This document shows, piece after piece, positions 1,931 through 64,000 of a stretch of 64,000 nt of DNA. The position numbers were made by a program, and so were the translations under genes. The notes beneath the pieces are model-generated. The model was not told where the DNA came from. It saw only the letters and a program-made list of their open reading frames with translations, and did not search any database. Location: positions 24,000 to 87,999 of IMG/VR virus record IMGVR_UViG_3300018475_000011, one strand, 5' to 3'. Position 1 is the first letter of the stretch; each line of letters begins with the position of its first letter. Source of the DNA: a virus. Its lineage: Duplodnaviria > Caudoviricetes.

Positions 1931-2014
1931 ATGCCCTTTATCTAAAAAGGACAATAGTGAGTGGCGATACATGATATACTATAATTACAACCAATATTAG
2001 AATAGGAGATAAGT

Positions 2015-5504: not shown

Positions 5505-5547
5505 CAAAATATAGTAAAACACAACCAACCAAAAAGAATAAGGAGAA

Positions 5548-11112: not shown

Positions 11113-11179
11113 AAATATATGATAAAGAAAGATTTATCATCAACACAACCAATAAATATCGAATAAAGGAGATGTAATT

Positions 11180-16187: not shown

Positions 16188-16240
16188 ATAATTACAGAGA
16201 ACAACAAACCAAATATACAATAACAAAGGAGATAACGCTT

Positions 16241-17469: not shown

Positions 17470-17478
17470 GGGGCAAAT

Positions 17479-17871: not shown

Positions 17872-18216
17872 GTGGTTAATTGCTGTATTTATGAAGATAT
17901 ATATAAAGGACAATATAAAAATCAAAAATACAGAATATGGTCTGTAATGGGGCGGGAAGGCGTATTGGCGTATTGGTATGTGGTAATGTATGATTCAACA
18001 TTCGATAAAGAATATACGCAACCAAATATCGACTATCCCGAAATAGATATAGATATGCAAGAAGTAGATGATAAAATAACAAACCTTGCCATAGATATTA
18101 GGAAGTTGCCAAATTATAAAAACATAACACCTACCGAAATCATACATTATAGAAAAACCCTTGTTGTTCCGCTTATAAAAGAAGCAATAAAAAAGGGAGA
18201 TATTACACCTATATAG
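17872..18216 (+). CDS. hypothetical protein
   Basis: GTG start after AAGGAG. Confidence 0.55.
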   Translation: MVNCCIYEDIYKGQYKNQKYRIWSVMGREGVLAYWYVVMYDSTFDKEYTQPNIDYPEIDIDMQEVDDKITNLAIDIRKLPNYKNITPTEIIHYRKTLVVPLIKEAIKKGDITPI

Positions 18217-23094: not shown

Positions 23095-23201
23095 TCATAA
23101 ATATAGGCAAATGTCTGTTCGATTTTGCTTGCAATCTGAATAGATTAGTGATATAGTTTCCTTAACACAACCAACTCTATTTTTAATATAAGAAAGGAAG
23201 T

Positions 23202-23549
23202 ATGCGTATGGGAAACTATTATGTAGGACAGACCGTATACAATTCGCTCAAAAAAGAAGATGAAGTTGTAGTTGGTGTGTCAGAAGAAATTATCAAGACT
23301 AGCAATGCAGACGGATTTGTAAGCGATTATGATATTGCCTATATTCTTCCTATGAGTTCAAAGGATATTGACAAAAAGTATCATAATATAAAATGTCATG
23401 TATGCAAGGAATTGGAAAAAGTTAAAGAAGTAAGTGGAGATTATCCATTGGTAATGTTTGAAGATATTAATGGAAATAGGGTAATGCAATATCCTTACTT
23501 CTGCTATTCATGCGGTGCAAAATTATTTGAAGAAGAGCCACTTGGATAA
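23202..23549 (+). CDS. hypothetical protein
   Basis: own promoter (TTGCAA-17-TATAGT) and ACACAACCAA leader; Cys pairs. Confidence 0.65.
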   Translation: MRMGNYYVGQTVYNSLKKEDEVVVGVSEEIIKTSNADGFVSDYDIAYILPMSSKDIDKKYHNIKCHVCKELEKVKEVSGDYPLVMFEDINGNRVMQYPYFCYSCGAKLFEEEPLG

Positions 23550-30512: not shown

Positions 30513-30559
30513 ATAATTAACAACCAACCAATAAAATCGAATAAAGGAGATATTAAATT

Positions 30560-30877: not shown

Positions 30878-30891
30878 AGGGGGACAATGAT

Positions 30892-35034: not shown

Positions 35035-36138
35035 ATGAGAAGAAATAGTAACTCAAACGATGTAGATTTAGCTTTGAAATGGGTAAAAGGATTGACCGAA
35101 GATATGGGGGCATTGGAAAAGCTCGTTTCCGTTCCTAGTCCCGAAGATATAAGAAAGCTCTTTTTGATAGATGCTTCTACAACGCTTGAAGAATCAGCAG
35201 AGTTGATGAAGAAACATAAAGAGTTTTATAAATTAATGTGCCAAGCAAGAGAATTTGACAAGTCTGCATATACGGAAACCGTTAATGATTTGGACGCAAT
35301 AAGTATGTTGCAAATATGGGCTAGAAATAAGCAGATATTTTCATTTGATGCGGATTTTCTTGCTGAATTGCTTAATACAGATACGCCAACATTTGAAAAG
35401 GATAGTTGGGATTACCTACCCTACAATCCGTTTTACGTTGATTTATCTGATAGCGAAGAGTTAAGTCAAAAAATAGGCAAGGGATTCTTTTTGTATATAG
35501 AAAAAACGGGAAACGATACGTTTATGCCCGAAATGCAAAACAGTTATTACGTTCATTTGTGCCGTGTAACTGATGAAATGTACTTTTGCGATATGTTTTC
35601 ACGCAAGAATACAAGCGGTACGGTGGAAATTAATAAAGACGCAACCGTAGTCGTTCCCACTATGGCAATGGATAAAAAACACGGCGAAATGTTTTCGATA
35701 GAAGATATTAAAACGGGCGAAGCTACATTGAGTAGCGGTTTATATGATTTGTTGGTTATGCAAATTCTTACCTATTTATCAAGCCTTGAACCCGATATTA
35801 AGGAAAACAGTATTACAAAAAATACATACAGAAAGCCGAAAACAGATTCCAAGCCAAAGAATAAGTTTTCGGAAGTGCAAAAATGGAATGTCGGAGAATC
35901 GTTTGGCGTTTCTTATAGGAAATGGGAAAAGGAACGCTCTGCGTCCCATGGCGGTCATGGTGGCGGTAGTGGAGCAAGCGGAGTTAAGAAGCGTCCACAT
36001 TCCCGTAAAGCCCATTGGTCGCATTATTGGTATGGAAGTGGCGACAACAAAGTGCGTCGCCCTAAGTGGATATCGGCAACCTTTGTTAATGCAAGTGATA
36101 CGGAAATGAAAGTAACAGTAAATACAGTTAGTAAATAA
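35035..36138 (+). CDS. hypothetical protein with basic His/Trp-rich C-terminus
   Basis: 367 aa; KRPHSRKAHWSHYWYG..WISATFV. Confidence 0.75.
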   Translation: MRRNSNSNDVDLALKWVKGLTEDMGALEKLVSVPSPEDIRKLFLIDASTTLEESAELMKKHKEFYKLMCQAREFDKSAYTETVNDLDAISMLQIWARNKQIFSFDADFLAELLNTDTPTFEKDSWDYLPYNPFYVDLSDSEELSQKIGKGFFLYIEKTGNDTFMPEMQNSYYVHLCRVTDEMYFCDMFSRKNTSGTVEINKDATVVVPTMAMDKKHGEMFSIEDIKTGEATLSSGLYDLLVMQILTYLSSLEPDIKENSITKNTYRKPKTDSKPKNKFSEVQKWNVGESFGVSYRKWEKERSASHGGHGGGSGASGVKKRPHSRKAHWSHYWYGSGDNKVRRPKWISATFVNASDTEMKVTVNTVSK

Positions 36139-38392: not shown

Positions 38393-38442
38393 ATAATTAA
38401 CAACCAACCAAATACAACTGAATAAAGGGAGATAACGGGAGC

Positions 38443-38929: not shown

Positions 38930-39313
38930 ATGAATATTAAAGAATTTAGCGTCGGACAGAATGTATATATTAGACTTTGCGGAAACGCAAGTAGGGGGAA
39001 AAGCGAAGATGCCCTTATCGAAGAATGGGAAATTGTTTCAGTTGGAAGAAAACTGATTAAGGCAAAACGCAAGGGTTGGACGGACGCTTGTGCGGTAACA
39101 TTTGAAAAGAGAGAACACGGGTATAGCGATAAATTTGTCGAAAAGACGAATACTTGCGTCGATTTTATCTTGTATAGTAGTCGGAAAGAAATAGAAGATG
39201 AAATTGAGCGGGAGAGATTACTTTGCTCTATATCAAATTATTTTCGTGGCTACGGGGAGAAGAAAGTATCTCTTGAAAATCTTAGGCTGATAGCGGAAAT
39301 GATTGGTGTATAG
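38930..39313 (+). CDS. hypothetical protein
   Basis: co-oriented ORF. Confidence 0.65.
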   Translation: MNIKEFSVGQNVYIRLCGNASRGKSEDALIEEWEIVSVGRKLIKAKRKGWTDACAVTFEKREHGYSDKFVEKTNTCVDFILYSSRKEIEDEIERERLLCSISNYFRGYGEKKVSLENLRLIAEMIGV

Positions 39314-41138: not shown

Positions 41139-41339
41139 ATGGCAAATTCAAATCTTAACATGAGAATTACAGAAGAAACAAAGGATTGCATTAAAAAGTT
41201 TGCGTCCGACAGAAATATGAACGTAACAGAGTATGTATTGTTTGCGTGCTACACAACTGAATCAATGGCAGAAACAGTTAAGTCTATTGCAAGCGATGTT
41301 AGCGAACTAAAAAACATGATTAAGCAGATGCAGAAATAG
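41139..41339 (+). CDS. ribbon-helix-helix DNA-binding protein
   Basis: NLNMRITEETKDCIKKFASDRNMNVTEYV. Confidence 0.7.
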   Translation: MANSNLNMRITEETKDCIKKFASDRNMNVTEYVLFACYTTESMAETVKSIASDVSELKNMIKQMQK

Positions 41340-41345
41340 GGAAAA

Positions 41346-41377
41346 AGAAGAGCATATCAAGGGATATGCTCTTTTTT
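41346..41377 (+). terminator. intrinsic terminator
   Basis: GAGCATATC-aagg-GATATGCTC then T run. Confidence 0.85.
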
Positions 41378-41399: not shown

Positions 41400-41428
41400 T
41401 TGACAAATATAACATCGTATGATACTAT
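41400..41428 (+). promoter_or_regulatory. SigA-type promoter of the putative sRNA (no CGTTAC box)
   Basis: TTGACA-17-TACTAT with extended TG. Confidence 0.75.
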
Positions 41429-41434: not shown

Positions 41435-41532
41435 GTAAACGATGTAAGGTCGTTTAGTAATAAAGAGTTATCTCTTTATTCGATATTTGGTTGTGTTGAA
41501 AAGTCGTTGTGTCCCCCATAACGACTTTTTTC
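41435..41532 (+). ncRNA. putative trans-acting antisense small RNA
   Basis: promoter, two hairpins, single-stranded segment and terminator (AAAAGTCGTT..AACGACTTTTTT), no ORF; 41467-41499 complementary to several 5' leaders. Confidence 0.7.
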
Positions 41533-41725
41533 TTGTCTAAAATTGCATATACTCTCTTCTGCTATCGACACATATACTCTCTTCCACTCTTTCGTTGGCA
41601 CTCACAAACTATCATATAGTTTGAAGGGTGCTTTTAATTTGCGTTGAATATGTCAAAACATCATGTAGTGTTGTAAAAATGCAAACACTACAAGGGGTTA
41701 TAGTGTTTGCAAAATGCTAAACGTA

Positions 41726-41754: not shown

Positions 41755-41795
41755 ATAATTACAACCAAATACAATTTAATAAGGGGGACAATGCC

Positions 41796-43061: not shown

Positions 43062-44819
43062 TTAGCGGTCGCCATAATCCGCTTTTGGCTTTTCTTTGGT
43101 CTGTGTCTGCTCTTTGTTCAATTCAGCAACATGAGCATCATATATTCGGCTAGGGCGTACTTTACACTCTACGCTCTTTCCCCTAAAATTGCTTATTTCT
43201 AATTCGCCCAAAAAAGCAATTTCTCCCTTGGCGTTTGTAGGATAATTTGCATCATTAAAGCCCCAATCAACCGCCTTAAACTTTGTTACGCCTTTAAGCT
43301 GAATATCCTTCCAATTAGGATTATTCGCTTTTCTAGCATCTTTTTTCTTTTCATTTTCTACGCCAATAATTTCAACGGGGGGTATTTTAAGACCCGTTCC
43401 TAACGGTTCTAAATGCTCCATTTTGCTTAATGTTTCATCTGCTGAAATTTCCTTGGGGGACATTTTTAGCAAAACAAGCTCTTCTTTTCTTTTAAGATTA
43501 GATTTGTTTTCGTTAATAGCTTCAACGAAAAGGTCAAAATCGTCGGCAGATATTCCCGAAATACCAACAGCGTCGTGATGCCCGCCGTACTTGATATTCA
43601 TACCGCCCACCGTATTATCTAAAAATAGCTTTAATGATTCATTTCCTACCGCATTACGACTACTTCCCGTAAATGTTTGTGTTTCTTCTTGGAGTGCCAC
43701 GCATATTACAGCCTTATCGGTTGCATCTGTCAATTTACTTGCAACCAAACCCGCAAGAGCCGTTGGAGTATTATCGGGCAAACGATATACAAACACATTG
43801 CCTTCCGAATGACGTTCTCTTAAAGCGGTTTCGTAGAATGTTTCATCTTGCAATGTCGCTACAACCGCCTTACGCTCCGAATTAAGCGTACTTAGCTTGG
43901 AAAGCTCAATATATGCGTTAGCGTTGTTTGGATTGGCTGTAAGAGCGTTATACATTCTCATAGCACCATTTTCTCCCAATATGGCACTCATTCGGGAAGA
44001 ACTATTAAGGAACGCACCTACATTAAAACCGATTTGCTTTGCCGTTACATCTTGTTCATTAATACCGCAAATACTCAATGTGTGACCTATGATAAAATCG
44101 AAATTCTCTTCGTGAGCATTATTGATAATATCAAGCCCCTTCTTAATTATTTCACGGTTACGGCTATTCATATCCATAACATTAACCATATCGCAAATAG
44201 TACCGATGCAAGCCATAGCACCCAATGTATTATTTAATACTTCTTCGGATAAAGATTCGATGCCTTGCTTTTCACACTCTCCACGCATACATTCAAACAC
44301 ACGATATGCCAAACCCGTTGCACAATATTGAGCATTAAGGCTATCGTCCGTGTGGAAGCAATGGGGATTTAGTAATAACGGGTCTTTTGAGAAGGCTTCT
44401 CTATCCGCTTCATTATTGATAAGGTGGTGGTCTATAATAATTGTGTCTTTGCCAAAAGTATTGCGGATATAATCTAATTCATTACTTCCCATATCAAGAA
44501 CGATGTATTTTGCATCTTCTTCCGCTTCAATGTATTTAGGAACACCATACGACATACGACGGTCGTTGCAATGTACTTCTAAATCAATATTGGGATTAAC
44601 CTTTCGCAAGGCTTTGTCAAGGATATATGCTGAACATATACCGTCTGCATCATAGTCTGTTAGAATACGAACCTTATTGTCGTTCTTCGCCAATGATAAA
44701 ACATGGCTTGAAGTAGAGAGAATACTAATACTAGCTTCGGGAGCTTCTTGCATTTTACTCTCTTTATCTTCGACATCGGCGATGATTTCATCAAGCGTTA
44801 CATATTTAATCTCTGCCAT
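43062..44819 (-). CDS. recJ: RecJ-like DHH/DHHA1 ssDNA exonuclease
   Basis: TDYDADG, VLDMG, IIDHH, GTICDMV, GSSR, GGHHDAVG; start at 44819 after AAGGAG. Confidence 0.85.
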   Translation of the reverse strand: MAEIKYVTLDEIIADVEDKESKMQEAPEASISILSTSSHVLSLAKNDNKVRILTDYDADGICSAYILDKALRKVNPNIDLEVHCNDRRMSYGVPKYIEAEEDAKYIVLDMGSNELDYIRNTFGKDTIIIDHHLINNEADREAFSKDPLLLNPHCFHTDDSLNAQYCATGLAYRVFECMRGECEKQGIESLSEEVLNNTLGAMACIGTICDMVNVMDMNSRNREIIKKGLDIINNAHEENFDFIIGHTLSICGINEQDVTAKQIGFNVGAFLNSSSRMSAILGENGAMRMYNALTANPNNANAYIELSKLSTLNSERKAVVATLQDETFYETALRERHSEGNVFVYRLPDNTPTALAGLVASKLTDATDKAVICVALQEETQTFTGSSRNAVGNESLKLFLDNTVGGMNIKYGGHHDAVGISGISADDFDLFVEAINENKSNLKRKEELVLLKMSPKEISADETLSKMEHLEPLGTGLKIPPVEIIGVENEKKKDARKANNPNWKDIQLKGVTKFKAVDWGFNDANYPTNAKGEIAFLGELEISNFRGKSVECKVRPSRIYDAHVAELNKEQTQTKEKPKADYGDR

Positions 44820-46335
44820 GATTTTCCTTCTCCTTCTTAGACTTTTCTGTGGTCTTATCTTCCTTTTTGTTGTTACGTTCATTGATAGCTTTGTCTACCA
44901 AATCAACGCTTTCTTCAAATAGTTTTACGCTGATTTTATAATCGGCTTGGTCTGCTCTATTGTTTCGCACGATAATTTTTCCCTTGTCTGCAACAAGACT
45001 AACATCTTTCTCGTTATCGTATTTATAGGCATATTGAGAAATGCCACCTTTTTCATCGAAATTAAAATAGGTTTTGTTGCCGTCGGGAGATACCGCACAA
45101 ATATATGTGCTGTCGTCGTGAATTAGCTTAATATCCCAACCCGACGGGGCATTAGAATCCATGACACGCATAATCGCATCAATGCGTTTGATATGCTCGT
45201 CGTTTGCTTTTTTGAAACCACTAACGCCTTGTTCTTTCAGCATGGTCTTTACATCATCGTTAGTTAAGCCACAAACAGATAAATAGCGATTGGTAATATC
45301 TGATTTGATGATATCCCTAACGATGTATTGGCGGTCAAAATCTAATTCGCTATGGATTTTGCCGTCTTTACCGTTAGTCCAAATGCCGACGGTTTTTTTA
45401 GCTCCCGTACCTTTGGGATTTTTGGGGTCTGAATTGTCATATCCCGTATAAAGAGATGCAACGATTTTATTGTTACTCATTTTGAACTCAATCAAAGAGT
45501 TTTGTCGTTCATGGATAACACAATAGGTTTTATCATCTCTTAATACACCACTAATACCGTTTGCATCGGTTGTAATATTATATAAATCATTGACTTTTCC
45601 GATAAGCTCTTCCTTCTGTTTTTTTGTTTCCATAAGGTTTTGAATTTTATCTTGCGTTTCCTTATCATATTTTCCGTAATTTTCTAAGTCGGGGAAATGC
45701 TCCCGCAAAATTTCAAGCCTTATTGCATCAGCAACGGAATAAGATTCATCAAGTTTTACTTCACTTAATTTTAGGCGGGATATGCTGACATCTTCTTCGA
45801 CGGGAACAAACCCGAATTGAACAAACCCGCCCGCCGATTGAGATTTAACCATATAATAATTATCGTCACTCTTAATATACAATTCTCCGTCTGCGTCGCT
45901 TTTGTATAGTGTAGCACTATCTGTATCAATTCCATAGCTTTTAATGGCTCTGTCATAGCTTGAAAAAACCTTTTCTCCTTCGCCCTTGGCTTGACTTTGA
46001 GCAAGGTCGTTTAATTCCTTTTCGATTTTGCCGATTTCCTTTTCGGCATCTTCAATAGAGATACTACCGATTTTACTTGCCAATTCCGATGTGGTATGAA
46101 TTAAATTGTCAAGGATTACCGCCGTTGTTTCGCTATTGTTTTCTACATCATCAAGACTTTTCGCTATACGCTCTAATGCTTCATAACAAGGTCTGTGACG
46201 CAATGCCTTAATAATATCCATAAGCATTTCATATAGAGTTTTCTTTTTTTCTTGATTTTCAGCTTCTATTCCCGCATTTTCGGGGTTGGTGTTTTCGGTA
46301 TTAGTATTATTAGTATTTTCTGTATTCTGTGCCAT
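44806..46335 (-). CDS. hypothetical protein, basic tail ..ENHGRD
   Basis: 509 aa; N-terminal coiled coil. Confidence 0.75.
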   Translation of the reverse strand: MAQNTENTNNTNTENTNPENAGIEAENQEKKKTLYEMLMDIIKALRHRPCYEALERIAKSLDDVENNSETTAVILDNLIHTTSELASKIGSISIEDAEKEIGKIEKELNDLAQSQAKGEGEKVFSSYDRAIKSYGIDTDSATLYKSDADGELYIKSDDNYYMVKSQSAGGFVQFGFVPVEEDVSISRLKLSEVKLDESYSVADAIRLEILREHFPDLENYGKYDKETQDKIQNLMETKKQKEELIGKVNDLYNITTDANGISGVLRDDKTYCVIHERQNSLIEFKMSNNKIVASLYTGYDNSDPKNPKGTGAKKTVGIWTNGKDGKIHSELDFDRQYIVRDIIKSDITNRYLSVCGLTNDDVKTMLKEQGVSGFKKANDEHIKRIDAIMRVMDSNAPSGWDIKLIHDDSTYICAVSPDGNKTYFNFDEKGGISQYAYKYDNEKDVSLVADKGKIIVRNNRADQADYKISVKLFEESVDLVDKAINERNNKKEDKTTEKSKKEKENHGRD

Positions 46336-46337
46336 GA

Positions 46338-47441
46338 TTATCTTCCTTTCGATGAATTTCTAAATTTACCCCAACCTTTTGTATTGTCCTTGGTGGAATC
46401 TTCAATGTTTGGCTCTACATTCTTAATAAACCATGAAGGTTTATATATTTGTCCGTCCTTGCCACAAAATTCAAGCCATTGCCTTATATTTTCTGTTCCA
46501 TACATCATTGCTCCGTTATAGATAAGGAGCGGTTTGTCATCAACGGTATCACGATTACATACATAAATCTTGCCATTTGGTTCTGCTTTGGTAGAAAAAC
46601 AAACAACGCTTCCTTCATAATGGATATTGGAAACATTTTCTCCAAATCCATTTTGCAACTCTCTTTTAATGGCGGTGTATATGCCATAAATGTTTTTCTT
46701 ATTATTGTCATTTATAGCATATAGGGCTTTTGTTGCGTTATTACTTAAATAATCTTTGCTCTCGATGCCTTCTTGATAACAAAAATTATAAACATCTTTA
46801 TAAATTTTGTCATAATCATAAGCCCCTTCTTTCTTTTCAAACAATAACGCCTTTCCTAATAATTCATCGGGATTGGTTAATTCCAAATGGGCGACGTTGT
46901 AAAAGCGATATCCACTCTTAATAAAGGGCTTTGTTTTATCTTTTGCGATTTCCTTATAGTTTGCATAATCATCGTCAAGCATAAATTCATGTCTATCGGT
47001 TAATCTTTTGCTGAAAACATCATAAGGAATGAATTTTTTAGGGGTTACGCTAATGTATTCTCCGTCGTGCAAATTACGCTCAAATTCTATCGGTTGTAAG
47101 TGCAAATAGTAATATTCGGGTTTTCCCTTTCCTTCAACAGCAAAAATGCTTTTTAACATACTTGCTTCATAATCCGATGCGGGTTTATACGAAGGATTAT
47201 TTGCATTTTTGAGTACCGTATCATCAGTTATGAGCATTTTTTGTAAAACAAACAAAACATCTGTCGAATCAAATGGTTGGATTCCAACAATACATTGGCT
47301 TTTGTCGGCTTTGATTGTTTTGCTAGTTTTTTCAAGAAAGTCAAACATCATATCGGCTTTATCCTTTATTGATGCTTGCTTAAATGGAATTTCGCCCTTG
47401 TTAATCTCAACAACATTTCCGTTGCTATCAACCACTTTCAT
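46338..47441 (-). CDS. hypothetical protein, tail ..NSSKGR
   Basis: 367 aa coupled ORF. Confidence 0.75.
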   Translation of the reverse strand: MKVVDSNGNVVEINKGEIPFKQASIKDKADMMFDFLEKTSKTIKADKSQCIVGIQPFDSTDVLFVLQKMLITDDTVLKNANNPSYKPASDYEASMLKSIFAVEGKGKPEYYYLHLQPIEFERNLHDGEYISVTPKKFIPYDVFSKRLTDRHEFMLDDDYANYKEIAKDKTKPFIKSGYRFYNVAHLELTNPDELLGKALLFEKKEGAYDYDKIYKDVYNFCYQEGIESKDYLSNNATKALYAINDNNKKNIYGIYTAIKRELQNGFGENVSNIHYEGSVVCFSTKAEPNGKIYVCNRDTVDDKPLLIYNGAMMYGTENIRQWLEFCGKDGQIYKPSWFIKNVEPNIEDSTKDNTKGWGKFRNSSKGR

Positions 47442-47444
47442 ACT

Positions 47445-48383
47445 TTATCTCTCCCACATATCTTTTTTCTTAGGCTTGGTTTGGTCTGTATTGCTTCTAT
47501 TGTTACGACTAGAACTATATTCTATAATTCGTGACTTTAATTGCTCAACCGTTTCCTTTTCCTTAATTGCAACCGTTAAATCCTTGCTCTCTTGTTCCAA
47601 CATAGACATAACGCAAAGCAAATCAAATTGGCTTTGTGATAATTTGATTGGATTTTCGGGCGTGTTATATTTGCGATATGCCGTTTGTAATTTGAACGCT
47701 TCTTCAAATTTCTTTTTCGGCATAGAAGAAATTATGTCGTCTATGTTTTGACGATATTGCCCTATCAAATAACCATAATTATTAATAGTTTCATCGCATT
47801 TATTTATCAATATTTCCTTAACAAATTCTTTGTCTGTTTTCCACATTTCCGCAAGGCTATGTATTTGGAGATATTTGTCGCCAATCGAATACTCATACAC
47901 GTTATCGTTTTCGTCAACGGCTTTAATATCATATAATAAGTTGCGGGTGGTAGTTGTCATTGCCCCGCTTAATCCTATGAGCTTACATTCTTGCGGGGTA
48001 AGCGGAAATACATCGGCATTTCTGCCTTGCTTTAAGTCGTTTCTTGCTTTTTGGACTTCCCTTAAATTGCTATACATATCCAATGGCAAATTATAATCAT
48101 CAATCAGCATTTCGCACGCATTAGGCAAGGTGGTATTCATGTTTTCCATTACTACTGATATCGGTGTGAAGGATTTTCCACACGCAAAACAAGTACAAGT
48201 ATTTGTATGCGGATATATATGAGCCGACGGTTTTTTGTCTTGGTGGCTTGGCGAAGGACAGCTTATGTTGCCCTTTTTGGAAGTATCAATATTTGCATAC
48301 CGCCTTAAAACATCATCAATGGGTACGCTTTTATTGATAGCATCTAAATCGTATCGCAATGGAATATAATGGTCTTTTTTCAT
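47445..48383 (-). CDS. CHC2 (primase-type) zinc-finger protein without TOPRIM
   Basis: VPIDDVL..CPSPSHQDKKPS..CTCFACG. Confidence 0.75.
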   Translation of the reverse strand: MKKDHYIPLRYDLDAINKSVPIDDVLRRYANIDTSKKGNISCPSPSHQDKKPSAHIYPHTNTCTCFACGKSFTPISVVMENMNTTLPNACEMLIDDYNLPLDMYSNLREVQKARNDLKQGRNADVFPLTPQECKLIGLSGAMTTTTRNLLYDIKAVDENDNVYEYSIGDKYLQIHSLAEMWKTDKEFVKEILINKCDETINNYGYLIGQYRQNIDDIISSMPKKKFEEAFKLQTAYRKYNTPENPIKLSQSQFDLLCVMSMLEQESKDLTVAIKEKETVEQLKSRIIEYSSSRNNRSNTDQTKPKKKDMWER

Positions 48384-48387
48384 GGTC

Positions 48388-50697
48388 TTATTCTTTTACC
48401 TTTTGTTGTTTTGATTCGATTTCCTTTTGAGCATTTGACAAATAAGAATTTGCAATGTGCATTGTGTTACGCACACTCGAACTACTGTCTTTGGCAATGC
48501 CGTCAATCATAGCTTTTATCTGTTCGATTTGGTTTATCTTTGAACCGTTAGAAAGTGAAAGCTCATTACTTTCTGCGGTCAAGACGGAAAGCGTAGATAC
48601 AAGAGCTTTCGACAATTCTTCCGTTTGGCGTTTTAATAAATCATTTTGTTCTCTTAAAGCATTGGTGTTTTCGGTCAAAGCTATTGTTTGCTTTGTGAGA
48701 ACTGCAATTAACGACGAATAATCAACATTAGAATCGGCTACTTTATTTTCCTTGCTTTCAACAGCTTCGCTAATATGCTTAATAGGTGCTTCTCCCACTT
48801 GCTTAACATTTCCGTCGGTTACAACAATGGGTACGGTATCATTATGCTTATTAGAATAAAGCTCTCTTTCTCTTTCATTCAAGCTCCTTGTGCCATATTC
48901 GCTTCCGTTCATAATAGCTTGAACTTCGATGTCGGCAAGCAATTCGGCTTGGGTGGGAATTTCAAAATATGTATCATCGTCAAGAGCGGGAGCAACATCG
49001 GCGGGAGCAACATCGGCATTGTTTAATACATCTCCGCTTACGATGCCCGCCACAAAATCATTTAATGAAACATTTTCTTGCGTCGGGGACACTTCTAACG
49101 ATTTAGCTGAATGTTCCTTTTCATCATCTTTTTGAGCGGATATTTCTATGCCATGAATACGCTCTCTTGCATCTTGATAAATAGAATCAACAATAGATGC
49201 CATGGCAAAACATTTGTCGATAGTATGTTTATTAAATACTTCAAGACCGTTATTTTCAGCAATACACTCTAAGCTGAATTTGAAATTAGAACCGTCAATA
49301 GAATCAAGGTCAATTACCCTATTAGGTAAATCATTGCTCATTCGTTCATAGGTATACTCTTTGACAACTTGTGCGAAGTCTATATAAGGTGCGTTACAAA
49401 CGCCCAAATTGCCGATTTTAGACATGGAATTTTGAGTAAAGGATAAATCACTATTCCTTGCTTTTCCGTTGCTAATTAAGGCGTATTCGTCCGTAGAATA
49501 CTGTTTGAAAAAGCGGTTAATCATATCGACAGCTTCATCGGGACTTAAAACACCACCTTCCGATGATGATATTCCTTTCATATAATCATCAAGATTGATT
49601 CCCGTATAGGTAAAGGCATCGAAAGAACCCTTTTCTTTGTTTTGAATTGCTTTATTAATGGAATTGCGGTCGGCGTTGATATCCATAGACATAACGCAAA
49701 CGCCTTCCAAACTTTCTTTGCCTAATTCATAGACCGTAGCCGTAAGCTGAATGGGGTAATCATTAGCGGTAAATCCCGTTGTTGCGGATTGCATTATGAT
49801 AATACCCTTTTTATCGCTCTTACCTTCTAAAACATCATATAATTCATTTAAGTCGCACGGATAATCTCTGTCTATAACATCGTGAGATATAACATTACTA
49901 CTCAAAAGGGTTGTGAATTTACCTTCAAAATCGCTTTCAAGGTATTTTTCCTTTCCTTTTCGCACCATGCTTTCATACTGTTCTTTATTATTTTCATTGT
50001 AGAAAACAACAGTATCATTATATAACCACTTGTTTTCACGCCCGTAATGAATCATAAAATTAGCCATTGATTCGGTACGCTTATCCGTCCCCATGATTTT
50101 TTCGGCAGATGCGATTTCTTTGTGATTTACATAGTGATTGAGGACATCTAATGTAGCGGTTCGTGATTCTATGCCCTTTTTATTGAAATACTCCTTTGTC
50201 AAAGTGGTTTGGTCGATAATTCTTTCATCTTCGTCAAGAGCTTTGAGCATATCAGCACAACCGATTTTATCCATATAGGAAATACAAAACTTAGTTCCGT
50301 TTGCAATGTAAACAGTATCTTTATCAAAACCTTCCATAAAGCGTGTAAATTTAGCCTTAAATTCATCGACACTTAAAACATTGTCGCCATTTATATATGC
50401 GGTTGCGTCAATACCGCCGTTTTGGAATACATCGTATTTATCCTTATTGGCAATGGCGTGTTGTAATCCTTCGTCGGTGCATTTTACAAGCTCGTCAAAT
50501 ACAAGAGCTTGTTTATATGCTCCTACTTCTTTGTCGTATTCATATTCTTTTACACATACTCTTGTGGGCGAATGTGCATCACAAGCAGAATTATCAATAC
50601 CCGTTGTGCTAACTACCATAAATACAAAATTGTTACGCTCATTAATTGCGTTTTCCATTTCCATTAAATAGGGGTATGCCTTAAACGAACCTTTCAT
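48388..50697 (-). CDS. protein with two degenerate DEDD/DnaQ-like exonuclease domains and a C-terminal coiled coil
   Basis: FMVVSTTG..IANGTKFC..IIDQTTL and IMQSATTG..ISNG..YIDFAQV..SLECIA. Confidence 0.55.
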   Translation of the reverse strand: MKGSFKAYPYLMEMENAINERNNFVFMVVSTTGIDNSACDAHSPTRVCVKEYEYDKEVGAYKQALVFDELVKCTDEGLQHAIANKDKYDVFQNGGIDATAYINGDNVLSVDEFKAKFTRFMEGFDKDTVYIANGTKFCISYMDKIGCADMLKALDEDERIIDQTTLTKEYFNKKGIESRTATLDVLNHYVNHKEIASAEKIMGTDKRTESMANFMIHYGRENKWLYNDTVVFYNENNKEQYESMVRKGKEKYLESDFEGKFTTLLSSNVISHDVIDRDYPCDLNELYDVLEGKSDKKGIIIMQSATTGFTANDYPIQLTATVYELGKESLEGVCVMSMDINADRNSINKAIQNKEKGSFDAFTYTGINLDDYMKGISSSEGGVLSPDEAVDMINRFFKQYSTDEYALISNGKARNSDLSFTQNSMSKIGNLGVCNAPYIDFAQVVKEYTYERMSNDLPNRVIDLDSIDGSNFKFSLECIAENNGLEVFNKHTIDKCFAMASIVDSIYQDARERIHGIEISAQKDDEKEHSAKSLEVSPTQENVSLNDFVAGIVSGDVLNNADVAPADVAPALDDDTYFEIPTQAELLADIEVQAIMNGSEYGTRSLNERERELYSNKHNDTVPIVVTDGNVKQVGEAPIKHISEAVESKENKVADSNVDYSSLIAVLTKQTIALTENTNALREQNDLLKRQTEELSKALVSTLSVLTAESNELSLSNGSKINQIEQIKAMIDGIAKDSSSSVRNTMHIANSYLSNAQKEIESKQQKVKE

Positions 50698-50703
50698 ATT
50701 ATC

Positions 50704-51078
50704 CTACCTTTCTACTGTGTTTTTAACTTTTCCTTTTGCTTTTTCGTCAACACCGATTGCTTCACGATTAAAGTGCCAATCATCAGTTAAATTTATAAAT
50801 CTTTCGGGGATATCCCACAAAGCATCTTCTATAATCCCCATACGACTTGACGCTGATTTGTTTTTGGGTTCAAGGTGGAATACTTTTTCGCCCATTCCCT
50901 TTTCGCCAATCTTTTTATAATAAAAATCTTCTTTTTCCTTTTCGCCGAATTTGACGGTTAATGTTCCTTCATCATTGGAATAGCTTAAATATTTGACATC
51001 ATTATTGTCCTTGTAAAAAACTGTCAAATCGGGATTTCTTGATTTTTCATTTTGGAAAATATTATATAATTTGTTCAT
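50704..51078 (-). CDS. hypothetical protein, tail ..KNTVER
   Basis: AAGGAG SD. Confidence 0.7.
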   Translation of the reverse strand: MNKLYNIFQNEKSRNPDLTVFYKDNNDVKYLSYSNDEGTLTVKFGEKEKEDFYYKKIGEKGMGEKVFHLEPKNKSASSRMGIIEDALWDIPERFINLTDDWHFNREAIGVDEKAKGKVKNTVER

Positions 51079-51091
51079 CTCTATACTCCTT

Positions 51092-51134
51092 GTAAATAAA
51101 ATAAGGGCAATCCCTTGTAGAAGGAACGCCCTTT
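51092..51134 (-). terminator. terminator-like hairpin immediately upstream of the 51078 SD
   Basis: AAGGGCGTTCCTT-ctac-AAGGGATTGCCCTT ATTTTATTT. Confidence 0.6.
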
Positions 51135-51264
51135 ATATAGCATATAATAATATGAATAAAAATCATATCAAATAAGACAAATACTATATAACGGACTATC
51201 CTTCAAAGCAATACACGCATATTGCCCGATAACAGAAGGGAATTACCGTATCTGATTACCTTAT

Positions 51265-51293
51265 ATTATAACAAAATTAAACAAAATAGTCAA
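51265..51293 (-). promoter_or_regulatory. SigA-type promoter
   Basis: TTGACT-17-TATAAT with extended TG. Confidence 0.75.
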
Positions 51294-51296
51294 CAT

Positions 51297-52859
51297 TTAT
51301 CGGTCAATGTCAACATCTGCTTTATATGACCCTTTCCCCTTGGGAATTGGTTTTCCCGCATTGCCAAAAGCAATGTCTTTTCCCCCAAAAGCAAGGCTTT
51401 GGGTTATGTACTTGAAGTTTTCATCTTCCGTCAATACCTTTCGGGCATATTCGCTATCAATTCGATTATTAAAAATGATAGGATTCGATTGGGGAGAAAC
51501 GGTTTCCTTTTCTCTTTTATAGAATATATCCATTCGATTCCCAAATTCATCAAACGTGATAGATACTTGCCCCCCATTGCAAAACAAGTTAATTGAATTA
51601 TTAAACTTATTATAAGCTACAATAACATCATCGGGTACGGCATTTGCGTATTCATCAACCCGCTTTTCCATTTTCAAAGCAAGGGCATCGGAATACTCGG
51701 TTGTATAACAAAATGTTTTGTTTGGCACTTCTGTTATGCCAATATCATCTAAGCTAAATTCTTTGTTGCCTAAATAAGAATCTACACCGTTGTAGTCGTA
51801 CTCGACCTTTTTGGCACGATTTAATTCAAGCCCAACCGTTGCAATTAAGTCATTAAATGAGTTTTTTGCAAGAATATTTAGATAATCGCTATTATCAATA
51901 TAAGCAAAGCCATTTGACGCATCTCTTATATCATATACTTGCGATACTTTACCCGTGTTGTCTTTGTAATAGGCATTAATTAAGCCCATTTCATAATCGT
52001 AATTAAGAATCATTCGGCTATCATGGTTGTCCGAAAATATCATGGCTTGATTTAGGGCGGGCAAAAATGTAACATTTTCATTTGCATAATAATTAGCAAC
52101 GGTCTTAATTCGCTCCGATATATCTGTTGATTTTATTATGCTTTCATTTTTGGCTATTCTCTCTTTGACCCTTTCCGCTTCCTTGTTGAATAATTCATCT
52201 ACAAGGCTAATCGCCTTTGGGATATCTCCAATACCAAATACCGCCATTCCAACGGTTTCAAAATTACTTTTTAATTCTTTGATAGAATACGGGTTTTTAT
52301 CGTCTTTAATAAGGGCTTTGTATTTATCATTATTGCGTACCATTTCTTCAACCGTAAAATAAGATTTGGGTTCATTGGTTATGCAATCAATAGATATTAC
52401 GGCGGGAAAACCTTTTTGATTTCGCATTACATTATTCAATTCGTAATTGGGATTAAACAATATAATATCATTGGTTTTCTCATTTTTCAGCAAACGGTAT
52501 TCGTCGGCATTAGGAGATTTTGCGATGCTTTCCATGATTAACTTAAATTCAGCTCTCTTTCTTTCGATATTAGAGAGATTTTCAGTAAGCGAATCTATGG
52601 CTTTTTGGGCGTTATCCTTGTTCTCACTTAACAACGCAAGCTCCAACGCATAATCAGCTCTTGCCAACACGGGAATTATCTCACGAAGATTGTTGTCGTT
52701 ATACTCACTTGGATTAGCATATTCGTCTTTTTTAGAATCAACAAAATCAGCTACTTCTTCGGCATTGATTTCTTCTTCTATTGGTTCACTTTCTATATTT
52801 CGTAATCGTTCCGATAATTTATCACATAAATCGGCTACTTTTCTTCTGAAATAAGACAT
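51297..52859 (-). CDS. hypothetical protein, tail ..DVDIDR
   Basis: 520 aa; GGGAG SD. Confidence 0.75.
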   Translation of the reverse strand: MSYFRRKVADLCDKLSERLRNIESEPIEEEINAEEVADFVDSKKDEYANPSEYNDNNLREIIPVLARADYALELALLSENKDNAQKAIDSLTENLSNIERKRAEFKLIMESIAKSPNADEYRLLKNEKTNDIILFNPNYELNNVMRNQKGFPAVISIDCITNEPKSYFTVEEMVRNNDKYKALIKDDKNPYSIKELKSNFETVGMAVFGIGDIPKAISLVDELFNKEAERVKERIAKNESIIKSTDISERIKTVANYYANENVTFLPALNQAMIFSDNHDSRMILNYDYEMGLINAYYKDNTGKVSQVYDIRDASNGFAYIDNSDYLNILAKNSFNDLIATVGLELNRAKKVEYDYNGVDSYLGNKEFSLDDIGITEVPNKTFCYTTEYSDALALKMEKRVDEYANAVPDDVIVAYNKFNNSINLFCNGGQVSITFDEFGNRMDIFYKREKETVSPQSNPIIFNNRIDSEYARKVLTEDENFKYITQSLAFGGKDIAFGNAGKPIPKGKGSYKADVDIDR

Positions 52860-52876
52860 TTTGCATCTCCCTTCTA

Positions 52877-54313
52877 CTATCTGTCTATATCACTCATTTT
52901 CTTTTTGGGCTTGGAAGTGTTCTGTTTGTCTTTTCCCATTTCTTCCTTTTCAAAGAATTTATCAAACTCTTTGTTGAACTCCTTAGAAAATGCGTCAGCT
53001 CGGCTAAATGCGGTTTCAAAAATCGTGTTTTTGCCGATACGGAACGCATCGGTTTGGATATTGTTCATAGTGTGGCTTATTTCTAATGCTAATTTTTCTT
53101 CACATTCTATTCCTATATGCTTACATACCATGTAGGCTGACATTGCAACTTCTAACTTGTGCATATCGCTATCGGACGGTATTCGGCTTTTAATACCCGT
53201 TATGATAGCGGGGTTTTCGGAAAACAATTTATCGGCGTAACCATGAACCGCTTGATATAATCTTTCTTGCTCGGATATATTTTTGTCGTCGGGAACAACA
53301 AAAGGGTAAGAAACGATATAACCGCCTTCATTAGTATTGAAGTTTATTTGATTCATTGCGGTTGAAATTTCATTGAAATTCTCTGCATTATCTTTAAGTG
53401 GCTTGTTTAACTTCAATAAATGTTCGATTTCTTCTCCTTTTTCATTTAAGGCGAATGTCTGTTTTATGTCGAATACGGGAGTATCAACAAATCCCGATAA
53501 TACTTGAACTTCTCCCTTATGAGCTATTTGGTCTAAGAGCTTATCTTTTTCATCATCAGTTAAGTGGTTACGCTCAACATATTTATTTACTGAATCTTCA
53601 TTAGAAAGAATTGTAAAGACGGGAGCAAATATATGAATAGCACTCTCTCCCTTACTTACTTGCCTATCAAGAGCTTTCCATGCTTTATAACCCTTAACCG
53701 CTTCGGCATCGGGGGCTTGGGCGTAAACAAGACCAATGTTATTGCAACTGTATCGCTCAAAATTATCCTTTATATCTAAAAACTTTTGATAGTCTGCTCC
53801 TTCAATAGTTGCTTTAACAGCATCACTAGCTTTTTGTGACAGAACTTCGGTAGACTTTGAAACATCTACATTGCCTTGCGATATTACGGGGATTCCGTAT
53901 TTATCTTCAATAGCCCCCTTTATTGTACCGTCGTAAAAATCCATTCCGCAAGCAATATCAAACGGTATATGAACGACAATACTGTTTGAAATATCATATA
54001 AATTACTCATGTATTTATTGGCGGTTTCTTTTATATGTTGCTCAAAGCGGGCGGGGTCGTATTCTTCGATATAATCGCCAATGTATTCGGAATAATCCAT
54101 GATATCTCCGTTAGCAAGCATTTCTTCACGCTCTGCCAATTCTTCTTGTTGATTAGCAAGGTACATTTCCTTAACATCATCTTTTGCCATAGATAAGGCT
54201 TGGGTGTAATTAATATCTGCGGGAAAATCAAATTTTACGCCCTTGCAAGTAAAAGGCACTCCTTCTTCTCTAAATTTCTTTATTTGATTATCTGTATAAC
54301 CGCTAAAATCCAT
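52877..54313 (-). CDS. ArdC-like N-terminal ssDNA-binding domain protein with degenerate metallopeptidase region
   Basis: YSCNNIGLVYAQ..KGYKAWK..RQVSKGESAIHIFAP..VFDIKQT; AVHGYAD in place of HExxH; start 54313 after AAGGAG. Confidence 0.75.
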   Translation of the reverse strand: MDFSGYTDNQIKKFREEGVPFTCKGVKFDFPADINYTQALSMAKDDVKEMYLANQQEELAEREEMLANGDIMDYSEYIGDYIEEYDPARFEQHIKETANKYMSNLYDISNSIVVHIPFDIACGMDFYDGTIKGAIEDKYGIPVISQGNVDVSKSTEVLSQKASDAVKATIEGADYQKFLDIKDNFERYSCNNIGLVYAQAPDAEAVKGYKAWKALDRQVSKGESAIHIFAPVFTILSNEDSVNKYVERNHLTDDEKDKLLDQIAHKGEVQVLSGFVDTPVFDIKQTFALNEKGEEIEHLLKLNKPLKDNAENFNEISTAMNQINFNTNEGGYIVSYPFVVPDDKNISEQERLYQAVHGYADKLFSENPAIITGIKSRIPSDSDMHKLEVAMSAYMVCKHIGIECEEKLALEISHTMNNIQTDAFRIGKNTIFETAFSRADAFSKEFNKEFDKFFEKEEMGKDKQNTSKPKKKMSDIDR

Positions 54314-54326
54314 AACAAACTCCTTC

Positions 54327-56021
54327 CTAATCTCTTTCGATATGCTTTTTTGATTTTTCTTTTTCATCGGGCAATTTAGAAGCAACAAGATATCCCGACA
54401 TTATCTTTTCCGCATTACGCATTATTGATTTCCATTCATCTTCCGACTTTGCAAAAACTTTTTTCATTTCTCTGCACATAAAACGGGAATCATCTCTTGT
54501 GAAAGCTCCAATTTCAACGGGCATATATTCACATATTGTATCATTGTGATTAACTACGGAAAAAGTAATGCTGTCACGTTTGATATTGTAATCCATATAT
54601 ATTTTTTTAGCGTCAATATGGCACATATCTAAATTATCATATAATACACGCCCCCATGATTCTTTGCGTAGGTCGAATTTGGAAAGGTCAAGCTCTGCTC
54701 TAACACCTTCGGGGATTCTAATAAGTTCGTCCATGCCCTTTGACATAGTATTGATTAAACTCTTCCTATCAACACTAAACGTCATGTCTTTTGTGTGGGC
54801 GGTCATTTCAAGTAAATATTTGATAGTACATTGGCTTTGGTCGTAAATAACGTATTCATCATTTTTTAGTCCCGTTCTGTGTTTGTCGGCATATACCGAT
54901 AAACAACCACTCGGCAAACTGTTCTTATTGAAGGAGCGGGACAATGATGAAACGGGTTTATACGTTTCTCCTAAAGCAACGGAATAAACCGCCATGTACC
55001 CACTATCACGTTGTCCGTCGTTCCATACCGCACCTTTTACGTCCATATAATTGAGTGATTTACGACTATCGGGAGCAAAGTAAAGTCCGTTGCCAAACAT
55101 CTTTCCCGTAATTTTTGCATCGGGATTAAGCGAAAGACCGCTCTTCATTATAGACAACCAATTCTCAACCTTGCTACCATGGTAAAATAACCGACAATCT
55201 CTATGGGATAAATTATGTGCTTTTTTGAAATCTTCATAAGCAGAGCGTGTTTTTTCATTCTCAACCGCAAATCCTTTAATATATCTGCTTTCAACTTCTC
55301 TACCGTCGTAATCTCTTCCTAAATGAGATGTGATTTCATCTTCTTCTTTATAAGTAACGGGACGAACAGACAAACCGTATGCTTCCAATAATGTTTTATC
55401 TTGGTCTACTGATGCCGTAATCTGCGGAGCAATTTGACCCTTGACATTATCAATCATGTCTTGTTCTCTTTTTATAATTTTTGTAAAGTCAAGCGATGAT
55501 TTAGCGGTATAATCGTCCACATTTTTCATTTTACGGGGAATGTCGGTAAATATTTCCACTAATTTTTCGTTGAAACGCCACAATGCCACATTAGGCATAT
55601 TATTAACCATGTCAATCAATTCATTAAGGTCGTTTTGAGCTTCATCAACCATTTTCTGTGTAATATCAGATGATTGAATCGTATAATTTGCCTTCATAAA
55701 TTCTCTTGCTGATTTGGCAAGCATCTCAATAAGAGCATTTACTTCTTCGTGTTCTATTTTTTTGTAATCCAAATCAGTATTGTGATTCGTAACAACTTGG
55801 CTTGAATGTAATGCGGTTACGTCGTTATACCCCTTGTTTTCCTTTGAGCGTAATAATTCATAAAAATCTTTTTCTCCCCTTGAGTAATGGTGGAACGATG
55901 CCCTACCGCCAACTCTTCCGAAATTAACATCAATACTGTTATCATCATTTTGGGTAATTTCATAGTATTTATTACTATTGGCAAGCGGGTCAACATATAC
56001 TAAATACGCATAATTCTTCAT
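54327..56021 (-). CDS. poly(ADP-ribose) polymerase-like protein (WGR + helical regulatory + H-Y-E catalytic domain)
   Basis: NKYY..FGRVG..K.NKGY; LFYHGS..GKMFGNGLYFA..KSLNY..NDEYVIYD. Confidence 0.9.
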   Translation of the reverse strand: MKNYAYLVYVDPLANSNKYYEITQNDDNSIDVNFGRVGGRASFHHYSRGEKDFYELLRSKENKGYNDVTALHSSQVVTNHNTDLDYKKIEHEEVNALIEMLAKSAREFMKANYTIQSSDITQKMVDEAQNDLNELIDMVNNMPNVALWRFNEKLVEIFTDIPRKMKNVDDYTAKSSLDFTKIIKREQDMIDNVKGQIAPQITASVDQDKTLLEAYGLSVRPVTYKEEDEITSHLGRDYDGREVESRYIKGFAVENEKTRSAYEDFKKAHNLSHRDCRLFYHGSKVENWLSIMKSGLSLNPDAKITGKMFGNGLYFAPDSRKSLNYMDVKGAVWNDGQRDSGYMAVYSVALGETYKPVSSLSRSFNKNSLPSGCLSVYADKHRTGLKNDEYVIYDQSQCTIKYLLEMTAHTKDMTFSVDRKSLINTMSKGMDELIRIPEGVRAELDLSKFDLRKESWGRVLYDNLDMCHIDAKKIYMDYNIKRDSITFSVVNHNDTICEYMPVEIGAFTRDDSRFMCREMKKVFAKSEDEWKSIMRNAEKIMSGYLVASKLPDEKEKSKKHIERD

Positions 56022-62958: not shown

Positions 62959-63597
62959 TTATAACATATAACAATATTCTATTTCCCAACCCTTATCTCC
63001 ACCATGTTCCGCTTTCAAATACCGTTCTATACGCACACACGGGTCGCTCTTATCAAGAGAAGTAGCAAATATGGAATATCCCCCCATTCCCGCAATCCAT
63101 GCCTTATTGTTATTTGAAACTTCATAACTTCTCGATTCAAGGGGATATTGAACATCAAAACTATCTTCCTTTATAACAATAACACCCTTTATCACATCAT
63201 CTCCGTAGCATATATGTTTTTCATTTTCTTTTCTTAATTTATTTCTTTCATCAATCATGTCGTTATGCTCTCTCATAGCACCACATAGCTCGGCGTAAGA
63301 AATTTTATTAATTCCGTCGGGGGAATCTTTATAAACAAAAGGAAGTATGAAAACACCGTAGCACGTTTCTTCAATTTGTGCCTTCATTTCATGCTCTTTA
63401 AGAAAATCCTTTAATTTACTTACATAATCATCAGTTAAAGATAGTTCAACGTATTTATCGCATAAAGATACTTTGAAACAATCCCTTTCCTTGTATTTAT
63501 CGAATACGCTAGGTAGCAACTTAACATTACTTCCTTCCGATTCTACAATATTGTTAAATTCATTAATCAATTCTTTAATGTTTGGTTGTGTTTTCAT
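62959..63597 (-). CDS. hypothetical protein
   Basis: 212 aa; AAGGAG SD. Confidence 0.7.
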   Translation of the reverse strand: MKTQPNIKELINEFNNIVESEGSNVKLLPSVFDKYKERDCFKVSLCDKYVELSLTDDYVSKLKDFLKEHEMKAQIEETCYGVFILPFVYKDSPDGINKISYAELCGAMREHNDMIDERNKLRKENEKHICYGDDVIKGVIVIKEDSFDVQYPLESRSYEVSNNNKAWIAGMGGYSIFATSLDKSDPCVRIERYLKAEHGGDKGWEIEYCYML

Positions 63598-63883: not shown

Positions 63884-64000
63884 AATATAATTCCTAACGG
63901 TCATAATAAGATTCCCGAAGGTCATAATGAAAATCCAAAAGGTTATAATAAAATTCCAAAAGGTTATAATAAAATTCCAAAAGGTCATAATAAAATTCCA
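63884..64000. repeat. 21-bp tandem iteron-like repeats (run off the window end)
   Basis: GGTYATAATAAAATTCCAAAA consensus; GGT at 63899, 63920, 63941, 63962, 63983; preceded by a very AT-rich tract. Confidence 0.85.

Follow-up and report, generated by a model that had tools for sequence, protein, structure and literature searches.

In F-like plasmids, the antisense RNA FinP hides the ribosome site in the traJ leader, and the functions concerned stay off while the plasmid is established. FinP is transcribed opposite its single target, as a cis-antisense RNA, and it needs a FinO-domain chaperone. RsaE and RoxS, the C-rich anti-Shine-Dalgarno (anti-SD) small RNAs (sRNAs) of Firmicutes, are chromosomal, conserved across genera, and target host metabolism via the Shine-Dalgarno (SD) sequence alone. 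The c4 RNA of phages P1 and P7 (immI) uses two-part pairing, with specificity located upstream and occlusion of the ribosome site, and RNase P cuts it from the transcript that it controls, a single operon target (PMC5320573). In the p576 regulon (Reg576/EGeRS2), a ribbon-helix-helix (RHH) repressor binds dual TTATCCC heptamers (PMC6294495, PMC8708921), and for pLS20 a long structured region of unknown mechanism is described (PMC8708921). Leaders can also be read by proteins, as in the case of Aca1 and Aca2, which bind 5' UTR RNA motifs of anti-CRISPR operons (PMC13551039).

Here we analysed a 64,000-nt window, bases 24000-87999 of an 87,999-base record that IMG/VR classes as a virus with terminal repeats. 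Judged from sequence and predicted folding, window positions 41435-41532 are likely to encode a trans-acting antisense sRNA, whose exposed seed would dock first and whose pairing would then mask the ribosome sites of a leader-tagged regulon. This one sRNA would probably switch off a block of recombination and likely anti-defence genes in at least seven operons. It has what is generally found in trans-encoded base-pairing sRNAs, namely its own promoter and terminator, a conserved accessible seed, and several unlinked targets. The kind of regulator is known; for its wiring, in which a stand-alone RNA with a masked anti-SD is constantly found beside an RHH gene and would address a private 5' tag on many operons, we found no described match. 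The literature searched on leading regions, zygotic induction, and plasmid sRNAs yielded no trans-acting RNA directed against shared leaders of plasmid early operons.

Like c4, the plasmid sRNA is a small structured RNA of a mobile element whose specificity differs between related elements, and its predicted duplexes are also two-part, with a specificity site upstream and occlusion of the ribosome site. Unlike c4, it comes with a promoter and terminator of its own and would target at least seven dispersed operons, and it is carried by a Gram-positive-type plasmid rather than an enterobacterial phage. With FinP/FinO it shares the principle of a plasmid-encoded antisense RNA aimed at a leader ribosome site, but it is unlinked to its targets, which are many and lie 0.3-40 kb away. 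RsaE and RoxS resemble it in their stand-alone promoter and terminator, their many SD-region targets, and a UCCC-type loop motif (here UGUCCCCC, in the terminator loop), whereas the plasmid sRNA is addressed by a private 5' tag and its main anti-SD is masked.

The likeness to p576 lies in several strong sigma-A promoters before small-gene operons on a Gram-positive-type conjugative plasmid, an RHH-type gene that may belong to the circuit, and the idea of a diffusible repressor whose absence from the recipient allows transient expression. The p576 repressor is a protein, whereas the shared element here is a transcribed leader matched by an RNA. Dual TTATCCC operators are absent; the two matches with two mismatches are at chance level and do not lie at promoters. 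A first-pass annotation of this DNA stated that antisense control had been proposed for pLS20-type plasmids, a proposal that does not appear in the p576 and pLS20 papers (PMC6294495, PMC8708921). The Aca systems are alike in that mobile-element anti-defence operons are controlled post-transcriptionally through a conserved leader, with one regulator for several operons; there the partners are a protein and leader hairpins, and here they are an RNA and unstructured leaders.

The record carries a 35-base terminal repeat, which indicates a circle. It encodes a MobV relaxase, a 970-aa VirB4/HerA-like ATPase, a type IV coupling protein, and TraX, as well as a type IA topoisomerase and a Rep3-type initiator. 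No capsid, terminase, or phage structural genes were seen among the large ORFs scanned. Judged by this gene content, the replicon is a circular 88-kb conjugative plasmid and not a virus. Its host is probably a low-GC Gram-positive bacterium, given a G+C content of 35%, sigma-A-like promoters with TG-extended -10 boxes, strong AAGGAG-type ribosome sites, and a relaxase whose closest plasmid relatives (~37% identical) come from Clostridioides and Peptostreptococcaceae. A close relative of the replicon is absent from PLSDB, from the phage collection, and from 185,579 species genomes, and the plasmid is known only from metagenomes. The oriT and leading region were not located on it. Five AAAGGTTATAAT repeats extend across the circle junction (window 63937-63971 plus the record's first 120 bases) beside the Rep3 gene, and are likely iterons of the replication origin.

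The predicted small RNA gene and its surroundings

The predicted sRNA is ~98 nt long (41435..41532, plus strand), its start being placed 6-7 nt after the -10 box. The promoter (41400..41428, plus strand) consists of TTGACA, a 17-nt spacer, and TACTAT, with a TG before the -10, and agrees with the consensus at 10 of 12 positions. The word CGTTAC, which the regulon promoters described below have in their spacers, is missing from it, and the sRNA may therefore be constitutive. The transcript is predicted to form, all on the plus strand, hairpin 1 (41436..41456; stem AAACGAU / UCGUUU, loop GUAAGG), hairpin 2 (41459..41480), a U/G-rich seed stretch CGAUAUUUGGUUGUGUUG (41481..41498), and an intrinsic terminator with a U tail (41499..41532; 41498-41530 in the terminator scan), a 14-pair hairpin with loop UGUCCCCC followed by a T run. 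In hairpin 2, the 3' arm CUCUUUAUU is an anti-SD masked by the SD-like 5' arm AAUAAAGAG, with an unpaired probability of 0.03 for the anti-SD arm; the loop together with the 3' arm complements the GGAGAUAAC segment of the leaders. The stretch at 41481-41498 folds as a weak wobble-rich hairpin with UUGGUU as its loop, which leaves UUGGUU unpaired and complementary to AACCAA at the leader 5' end. The sRNA as a whole has a minimum free energy (MFE) of -33.3 kcal/mol (z = -7.2), and no shuffle folds as well. The signal scan and the fold bear out the promoter, two hairpins, unpaired stretch, and terminator that had been placed here by the first-pass annotation. That annotation did not recognise the RNA, and no Rfam family matches it, either at the gathering score or leniently; C4 is absent from both result sets.

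The unit contains no ORF with a ribosome site and has no coding potential, and no gene is encoded opposite 41435-41532. A replication-control RNA was ruled out, the Rep gene and its nearby repeats lying more than 20 kb away, as was a type I toxin-antitoxin RNA, for which the small ORF on the opposite side is absent. A single-strand origin or promoter was likewise ruled out, as the unit has ordinary double-strand promoter and terminator signals.

Two other terminators flank the sRNA unit. Directly upstream is a 66-aa RHH gene (41139..41339, plus strand) with weak NikA-like, TacA, and CopG matches, which ends in its own terminator-like hairpin at 41348-41373. This RHH gene appears to close the operon behind the targeted 38443 leader. 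On the 3' side, a 190-nt spacer precedes the next promoter (41726). Within the spacer are a direct repeat of CATATACTCTCTTC (41546-41559 and 41571-41584) and a palindrome, CAAACTAT-N-ATAGTTTG, at 41605-41623. The palindrome and one CATATACTCTCTTC copy recur at the same place in two related metagenome assemblies, L042 and L043, and the repeat and palindrome may constitute a protein-binding site.

Complementarity between the small RNA and operon leaders

The motif ACAACCAA occurs 12 times in the window against 1.9 expected, a count reached in none of 100 shuffles. Seven of its plus-strand copies lie between a promoter and a start codon, 20-35 nt before the start codon, and the leader motif starts 6-8 nt beyond the -10 box, where the mRNA is predicted to begin. 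The reverse complement of sRNA positions 24-66 aligns with the leaders from their 5' end through AAUAAAGGAG, and in several leaders the alignment runs on through GAUAAC. The leaders are unstructured, with MFE values of 0 to -2.2 kcal/mol that are no better than those of shuffles, and have no conserved hairpin; a 5' hairpin ahead of the tag is present in the erf leader only.

Full-length sRNA duplexes with 60-nt windows of the replicon were long and heavily bulged everywhere. Since they did not discriminate, they were replaced by core-only duplexes, cofolding, and local alignment. Duplex energies were computed for the sRNA core with 134 start regions, and the top 12 beat the same rank in all 200 dinucleotide shuffles of the core. 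Cofolding, which charges the sRNA for opening its own hairpins, sets apart 6-8 of the 134 start regions at -24 to -10 kcal/mol, versus a median of -3.7 kcal/mol for all 134. In the best cofolded complexes, hairpin 2 opens while hairpin 1 and the terminator remain closed. The local-alignment scan covered both strands of the whole 88-kb replicon and used no gene calls. Its top five non-self alignments score 48, 39, 37, 36, and 32; each lies on the coding strand and stops 4-8 nt short of a start codon. Scores below ~27 merge with those of locally shuffled DNA. The complementarity between sRNA and leaders exceeds chance. The earlier proposal of an exposed seed and a masked anti-SD arm able to pair with many leaders agrees with the computed folds and duplexes, and the pairing is far better than that of shuffled RNAs or of the other ~125 start regions.

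The best target is the leader of the Erf-family recombinase operon (11138..11179, plus strand), with a cofolding energy of -23.6 kcal/mol and an alignment score of 48. This operon begins with the Erf-family gene (11180-12046), followed by a PIF1-like helicase gene. Successive paired runs of 11, 14, and 5 nt are separated by bulges of 3 nt and 1 nt, respectively, and an earlier description as 13 nt, a 3-nt bulge, and 13 nt comes close to this. Within the erf gene, GCAAACGCTAA is present six times at 11810-11918 with 12- to 54-nt spacing, and the Erf-family protein contains a repeated peptide segment as a result.

The leader of the 38443 operon (38397..38442, plus strand) cofolds at -19.8 kcal/mol and has orthologous leaders in L042, L043, and a further relative, L009. 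A 55-aa gene comes first in this operon, which includes ProQ C-terminal-like and RHH genes. The leader of a 109-aa gene at 5548-5877 (5516..5547, plus strand; alignment score 30) also cofolds at -19.8 kcal/mol; the name ssb given earlier to this gene finds no Pfam or PHROGs support. Next are the leader of a 105-aa gene with function unassigned, first in its operon (30517..30559, plus strand; cofold -17.0, score 39), and that of the DUF932 gene (16195..16240, plus strand; cofold -15.6, score 36). We place the DUF932 start at 16241 and not at 16166, because the promoter overlaps 16166. The leader of the 74-aa gene 41796 (41758..41795, plus strand) cofolds at -11.2 and combines a seed match with a GGGGGACA ribosome site. 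The short leader of the RecD2-like helicase gene (1984..2014, plus strand) has a duplex energy of -25.4, a cofolding energy of -7.2, and a score of 28; its pairing is weaker and near background in cofolding. The leader of 23202-23549 (23162..23201, plus strand; score 22) is weak and seed-only. All eight leaders named in the first-pass annotation thus exist, including the last, which it had already called partial.

Two further sites extend the set. One, a possible target, covers codons 3-6 of 62959-63597, the first gene of a minus-strand block (63572..63592, minus strand; cofold -9.8, score 27), and has ACACAACCAAA behind a CGTTAC-type promoter. The other is the start region of an HTH gene (replicon 2717-2989, outside the window), with a cofolding energy of -15.9 kcal/mol. 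A point against the model is that the anti-SD of the window sRNA has to leave one G bulged to pair with GGAG. Inside gene 17872-18216, positions 18019-18032 match the sRNA reverse complement exactly over 14 nt (CAACCAAATATCGA), and a 20-nt match at 17474-17493 overlaps a start codon at 17479; these matches may be extra targets or chance.

The GGGGGACA sequence itself is overrepresented, with 8 copies against 0.75 expected, among them those at window positions 30879, 35024, and 41783 and also at 3448, 4312, 28093, and 43455. The copies at 30879, 35024, and 41783 form the ribosome sites of genes 30892, 35035, and 41796, respectively. The GGGGGACA ribosome site of the 41796 leader matches the sRNA terminator loop, and the orthologue of this leader in the relative L008 cofolds at -18.8 kcal/mol. 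From this complementarity, the loop UGUCCCCC may be a second seed against GGGGGACA-type ribosome sites; no co-variation of UGUCCCCC and GGGGGACA is seen in L009.

The position of the seed target at the predicted mRNA 5' terminus could also fit an activator or stabiliser, in which pairing at the extreme 5' end shields tagged mRNAs from a 5'-exonuclease. The pairing, however, crosses the Shine-Dalgarno and reaches up to 4-8 nt before the start codon, so that the ribosome should be blocked, and we regard a stabilising role as highly improbable.

Promoters, neighbouring genes, and regulon content

A family of near-identical promoters carries CGTTAC at a fixed place in the 17-nt spacer, at 16159, 18473, 23604, 30484, 31717, 34123, 36194, 38364, and 41726 on the plus strand and 63657 on the minus strand. 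The leader tag follows those at 16159, 30484, 38364, and 41726, and in a degenerate form the one at 31717. It is absent after 18473, 23604, 34123, and 36194, where the leaders are ~15 nt long, and it also follows unrelated promoters at 5476, at 11084, and before 2015. Being found behind unrelated promoter types and missing from other CGTTAC promoters, the tag is a module of its own, and the leaders are therefore not mere passengers of one duplicated promoter cassette.

This bears on a reading in which the leaders are alike through copying of an open promoter-leader cassette and the inverted copy at 41467-41499 is a by-product with no regulatory role. Terminator-promoter junctions do repeat in the manner of cassette borders, and the leaders are A/C-rich and open, as copying would have it. 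Besides the tag's occurrence behind unrelated promoters, however, the inverted copy has a near-consensus promoter and a strong terminator, with no start codon after it on the other strand. The unit is also syntenic across lineages whose neighbouring RHH proteins are 43-77% identical, and in L009 the RNA and leaders have changed together. Such an origin for the complementarity is very unlikely.

The CGTTAC set probably represents the operators of a protein repressor, for which the adjacent RHH protein is, from its position, the obvious candidate. If the RHH protein represses these promoters, the sRNA would escape that control and would form a second, post-transcriptional layer. A 127-aa PF24203 protein (phage ProQ C-terminal-like; 38930-39313; Pfam E 8.5e-9) is encoded inside the sRNA-targeted operon. 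Many metagenomic elements carry a relative (58-94% identical), mostly without this sRNA; in L045-L051 (58-74% identical), neither the sRNA nor the promoter/leader family is present. Comparison of the PF24203 family profile with solved structures gave nothing meaningful. In the subset of genes scanned, no Hfq- or FinO-type chaperone gene was found, the ProQ C-terminal-like PF24203 gene being the only one of related type. The PF24203 protein may be an RNA-binding partner, which we offer only as a lead. The tagged 38443 operon appears to reach the RHH gene via PF24203, so the circuit may feed back on itself.

These genes also raise an alternative in which the shared leader is mainly an RNA or DNA site for a plasmid protein (RHH, HTH, or ProQ C-terminal-like), with the sRNA secondary or acting as a titrator. 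The RHH gene adjoins the sRNA in all lineages, the PF24203 protein is encoded within a tagged operon, and there is precedent in Aca1 and Aca2, which bind RNA motifs in anti-defence leaders, and in the existence of an RHH Aca (PMC13551039). Unlike the Aca motifs, however, the leaders here are unstructured and have no conserved hairpin. Furthermore, the sRNA carries the complement of the tag and not the tag, and so cannot mimic a protein site, and the complementarity is ~30 nt long and co-varies. We consider a protein site as the main role of the leader improbable, and base pairing with the sRNA remains our preferred account.

The tagged genes encode an Erf-family recombinase with a PIF1-like helicase, a RecD2-like helicase, a DUF932 protein, and a Cro/C1-type HTH protein, together with the 109-aa protein and many small proteins without a family. 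In the orthologous region of L042, precomputed matches name two AcrVA2-like proteins; in the window, a Pfam scan of gene 35035-36138 found nothing at E 0.001. An establishment or anti-defence role of the regulon is plausible from this content, though only in part documented. A convergent minus-strand block at 43062-56021 encodes a RecJ-like DHH/DHHA1 protein, a DnaG-type zinc ribbon protein, an ArdC N-terminal domain protein, and a WGR-PARP protein, with the CGTTAC promoter 63657 at its head. This block is likely a second set of entry or anti-defence functions.

Relatives, co-variation, and a proposed mechanism

Relatives were reached via the RHH protein and a neighbouring 313-aa protein, and all are metagenome assemblies. 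Three lineages could be compared, including that of the window, the two others as fragments of 6-11 kb. In one (L042, L043, L044, and L008), the RHH protein is 77% and the 313-aa protein 83% identical to those of the window; in the other (L009 and L010), the values are 43% and 57%. The sRNA gene lies directly behind the RHH gene in all three lineages, and its homologues in L042, L043, and L009 have a TTGACA-17-TAnTAT promoter and a strong terminator. An nhmmer profile of the sRNA finds exactly one copy per element and none elsewhere. All three lineages keep UAAGGU (loop of hairpin 1), AUUUGGUUG, and GAAAAG (base of the terminator) unchanged, and the terminator stems vary by paired changes (GUCGUU/AACGAC versus GCCGUC/GACGG). 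In all homologues the seed is open and the anti-SD masked (unpaired probability 0.03-0.24), with the L009 mask built differently, from a longer 5' helix.

Wider searches gave no further homologues. BLAST against PLSDB and the phage collection found none, IMG/VR pattern scans returned one chance match or none, and 30 matches in JGI metagenomes were all rejected as chance, having no promoter or terminator context. Species genomes yielded no sRNA by pattern and none by way of the 313-aa protein family, and IMG/VR relatives of the 313-aa protein (29-35% identical) are without the sRNA. K-mer screens for analogous RNA/leader pairs in distant relatives were swamped by trivial anti-SD matches.

In L009, the stretch of the sRNA from seed to anti-SD differs from that of the window, its reverse complement being CCAACCAAATAAAAACAATAAAGGAG, and the two tagged leaders on the 6.3-kb fragment read AACCAAATAAAAACAAAATAGGAG and AACCAAATAAAAACAGAAAGGGG. 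The L009 sRNA has 15-17 nt of exact complementarity to these two leaders (AACCAAATAAAAACA) that is missing in the window pair, and cofolding of the leaders with their cognate RNA gives -18.5 and -24.3 kcal/mol, versus -1.6 to -9.9 kcal/mol for the other 11 starts. From these few sequences, the sRNA and leaders have changed together in L009, the most distant lineage. In L042, the loop of hairpin 2 is AUUUU versus UUAU in the window, and the orthologous leader has GGAGAAAU where the window has GGAGAUAAC, such that the bases after the SD change in step with the loop. One clear outlier target is present on each of the fragments L042 (-16.0 kcal/mol) and L008 (-18.8 kcal/mol). The window and L042 RNAs nevertheless pair about equally with each other's leaders, cognate and non-cognate pairs not being clearly different, and good pairing with some foreign leaders is also seen for the L009 RNA, whose anti-SD, CUCCUUU, is perfect. 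Any address code is therefore coarse. The covariation in relatives that the first-pass annotation had named as a check is present as changes in step in L009 and L042, with the near-equal cross-pairing of window and L042 as a caveat.

L009 also has the leader tag in sense orientation (TTCCAACCAATTTAAAAAACAATA; ~3964-3987, minus strand) immediately before the sRNA promoter, where the RHH transcript ends. A read-through RNA with this copy may pair with the sRNA seed and mask it in L009. No sense tag copy is found upstream of the sRNA promoter in the window.

The same pairing could have inter-plasmid competition as its main use, with the RNA of a resident plasmid silencing the early operons of an incoming sibling. 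A possibly constitutive sRNA promoter without the CGTTAC word would suit such a use, as would the difference in sRNA and tags between lineages (L009 versus the window), which immunity specificity predicts, and the c4 RNA of phage P1 acts as RNA-level immunity (PMC5320573). The cross-pairing of window and L042, on the other hand, makes the specificity coarse, and competition as the main use is unlikely. A private RNA address code that combines both, with established-state silencing through a toehold-gated anti-SD and silencing of an incoming sibling plasmid, is possible but doubtful.

In the mechanism that we favour, the sRNA would be made from its own sigma-A-type promoter, probably constitutively. 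The unpaired UUGGUU, next to the terminator, would dock on the open A/C-rich mRNA 5' end (ACAACCAA) of approximately 7-10 operons. Pairing would then zip 5'-wards in the sRNA and open hairpin 2, and the freed 3' arm and loop of this hairpin would cover the AAUAAAGGAGAUAAC ribosome site. The resulting duplex of ~30 bp would stop translation from starting and would probably attract RNase III, leading to decay. Since the anti-SD is hidden until the seed has docked, the sRNA would be kept off other ribosome sites. The tagged operons would be silenced in the established state and released in a cell lacking the sRNA. The pairing geometry is computed; for the later steps we draw on what is established for other antisense RNAs, and we infer transcription, repression, and the roles of RNase III and of timing. 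As the sRNA and its targets enter a recipient on the same DNA, the post-transfer timing is likewise something we infer, and a burst after transfer would further require, for example, that a stable RNA builds up slowly.

Synthetic toehold regulators are built on the same principle, an exposed seed combined with a masked anti-SD, and a natural case would be of interest to RNA biologists. The sRNA and its tag would also make a compact orthogonal repressor/tag pair, for which the window and L009 versions suggest ready-made variants. The address code, if true, would keep a costly set of early genes silent and would also give exclusion or incompatibility at the RNA level. Published ways to switch the early, anti-defence, and recombination genes of conjugative plasmids on briefly and off again comprise single-strand promoters, a protein repressor, and an unknown mechanism (PMC8708921). 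Control of many operons by one stand-alone RNA via a shared 5' tag would be a further solution for brief early-gene expression. Such a system could evolve cheaply, since ~30 nt of leader would be enough to bring a cassette into the regulon.
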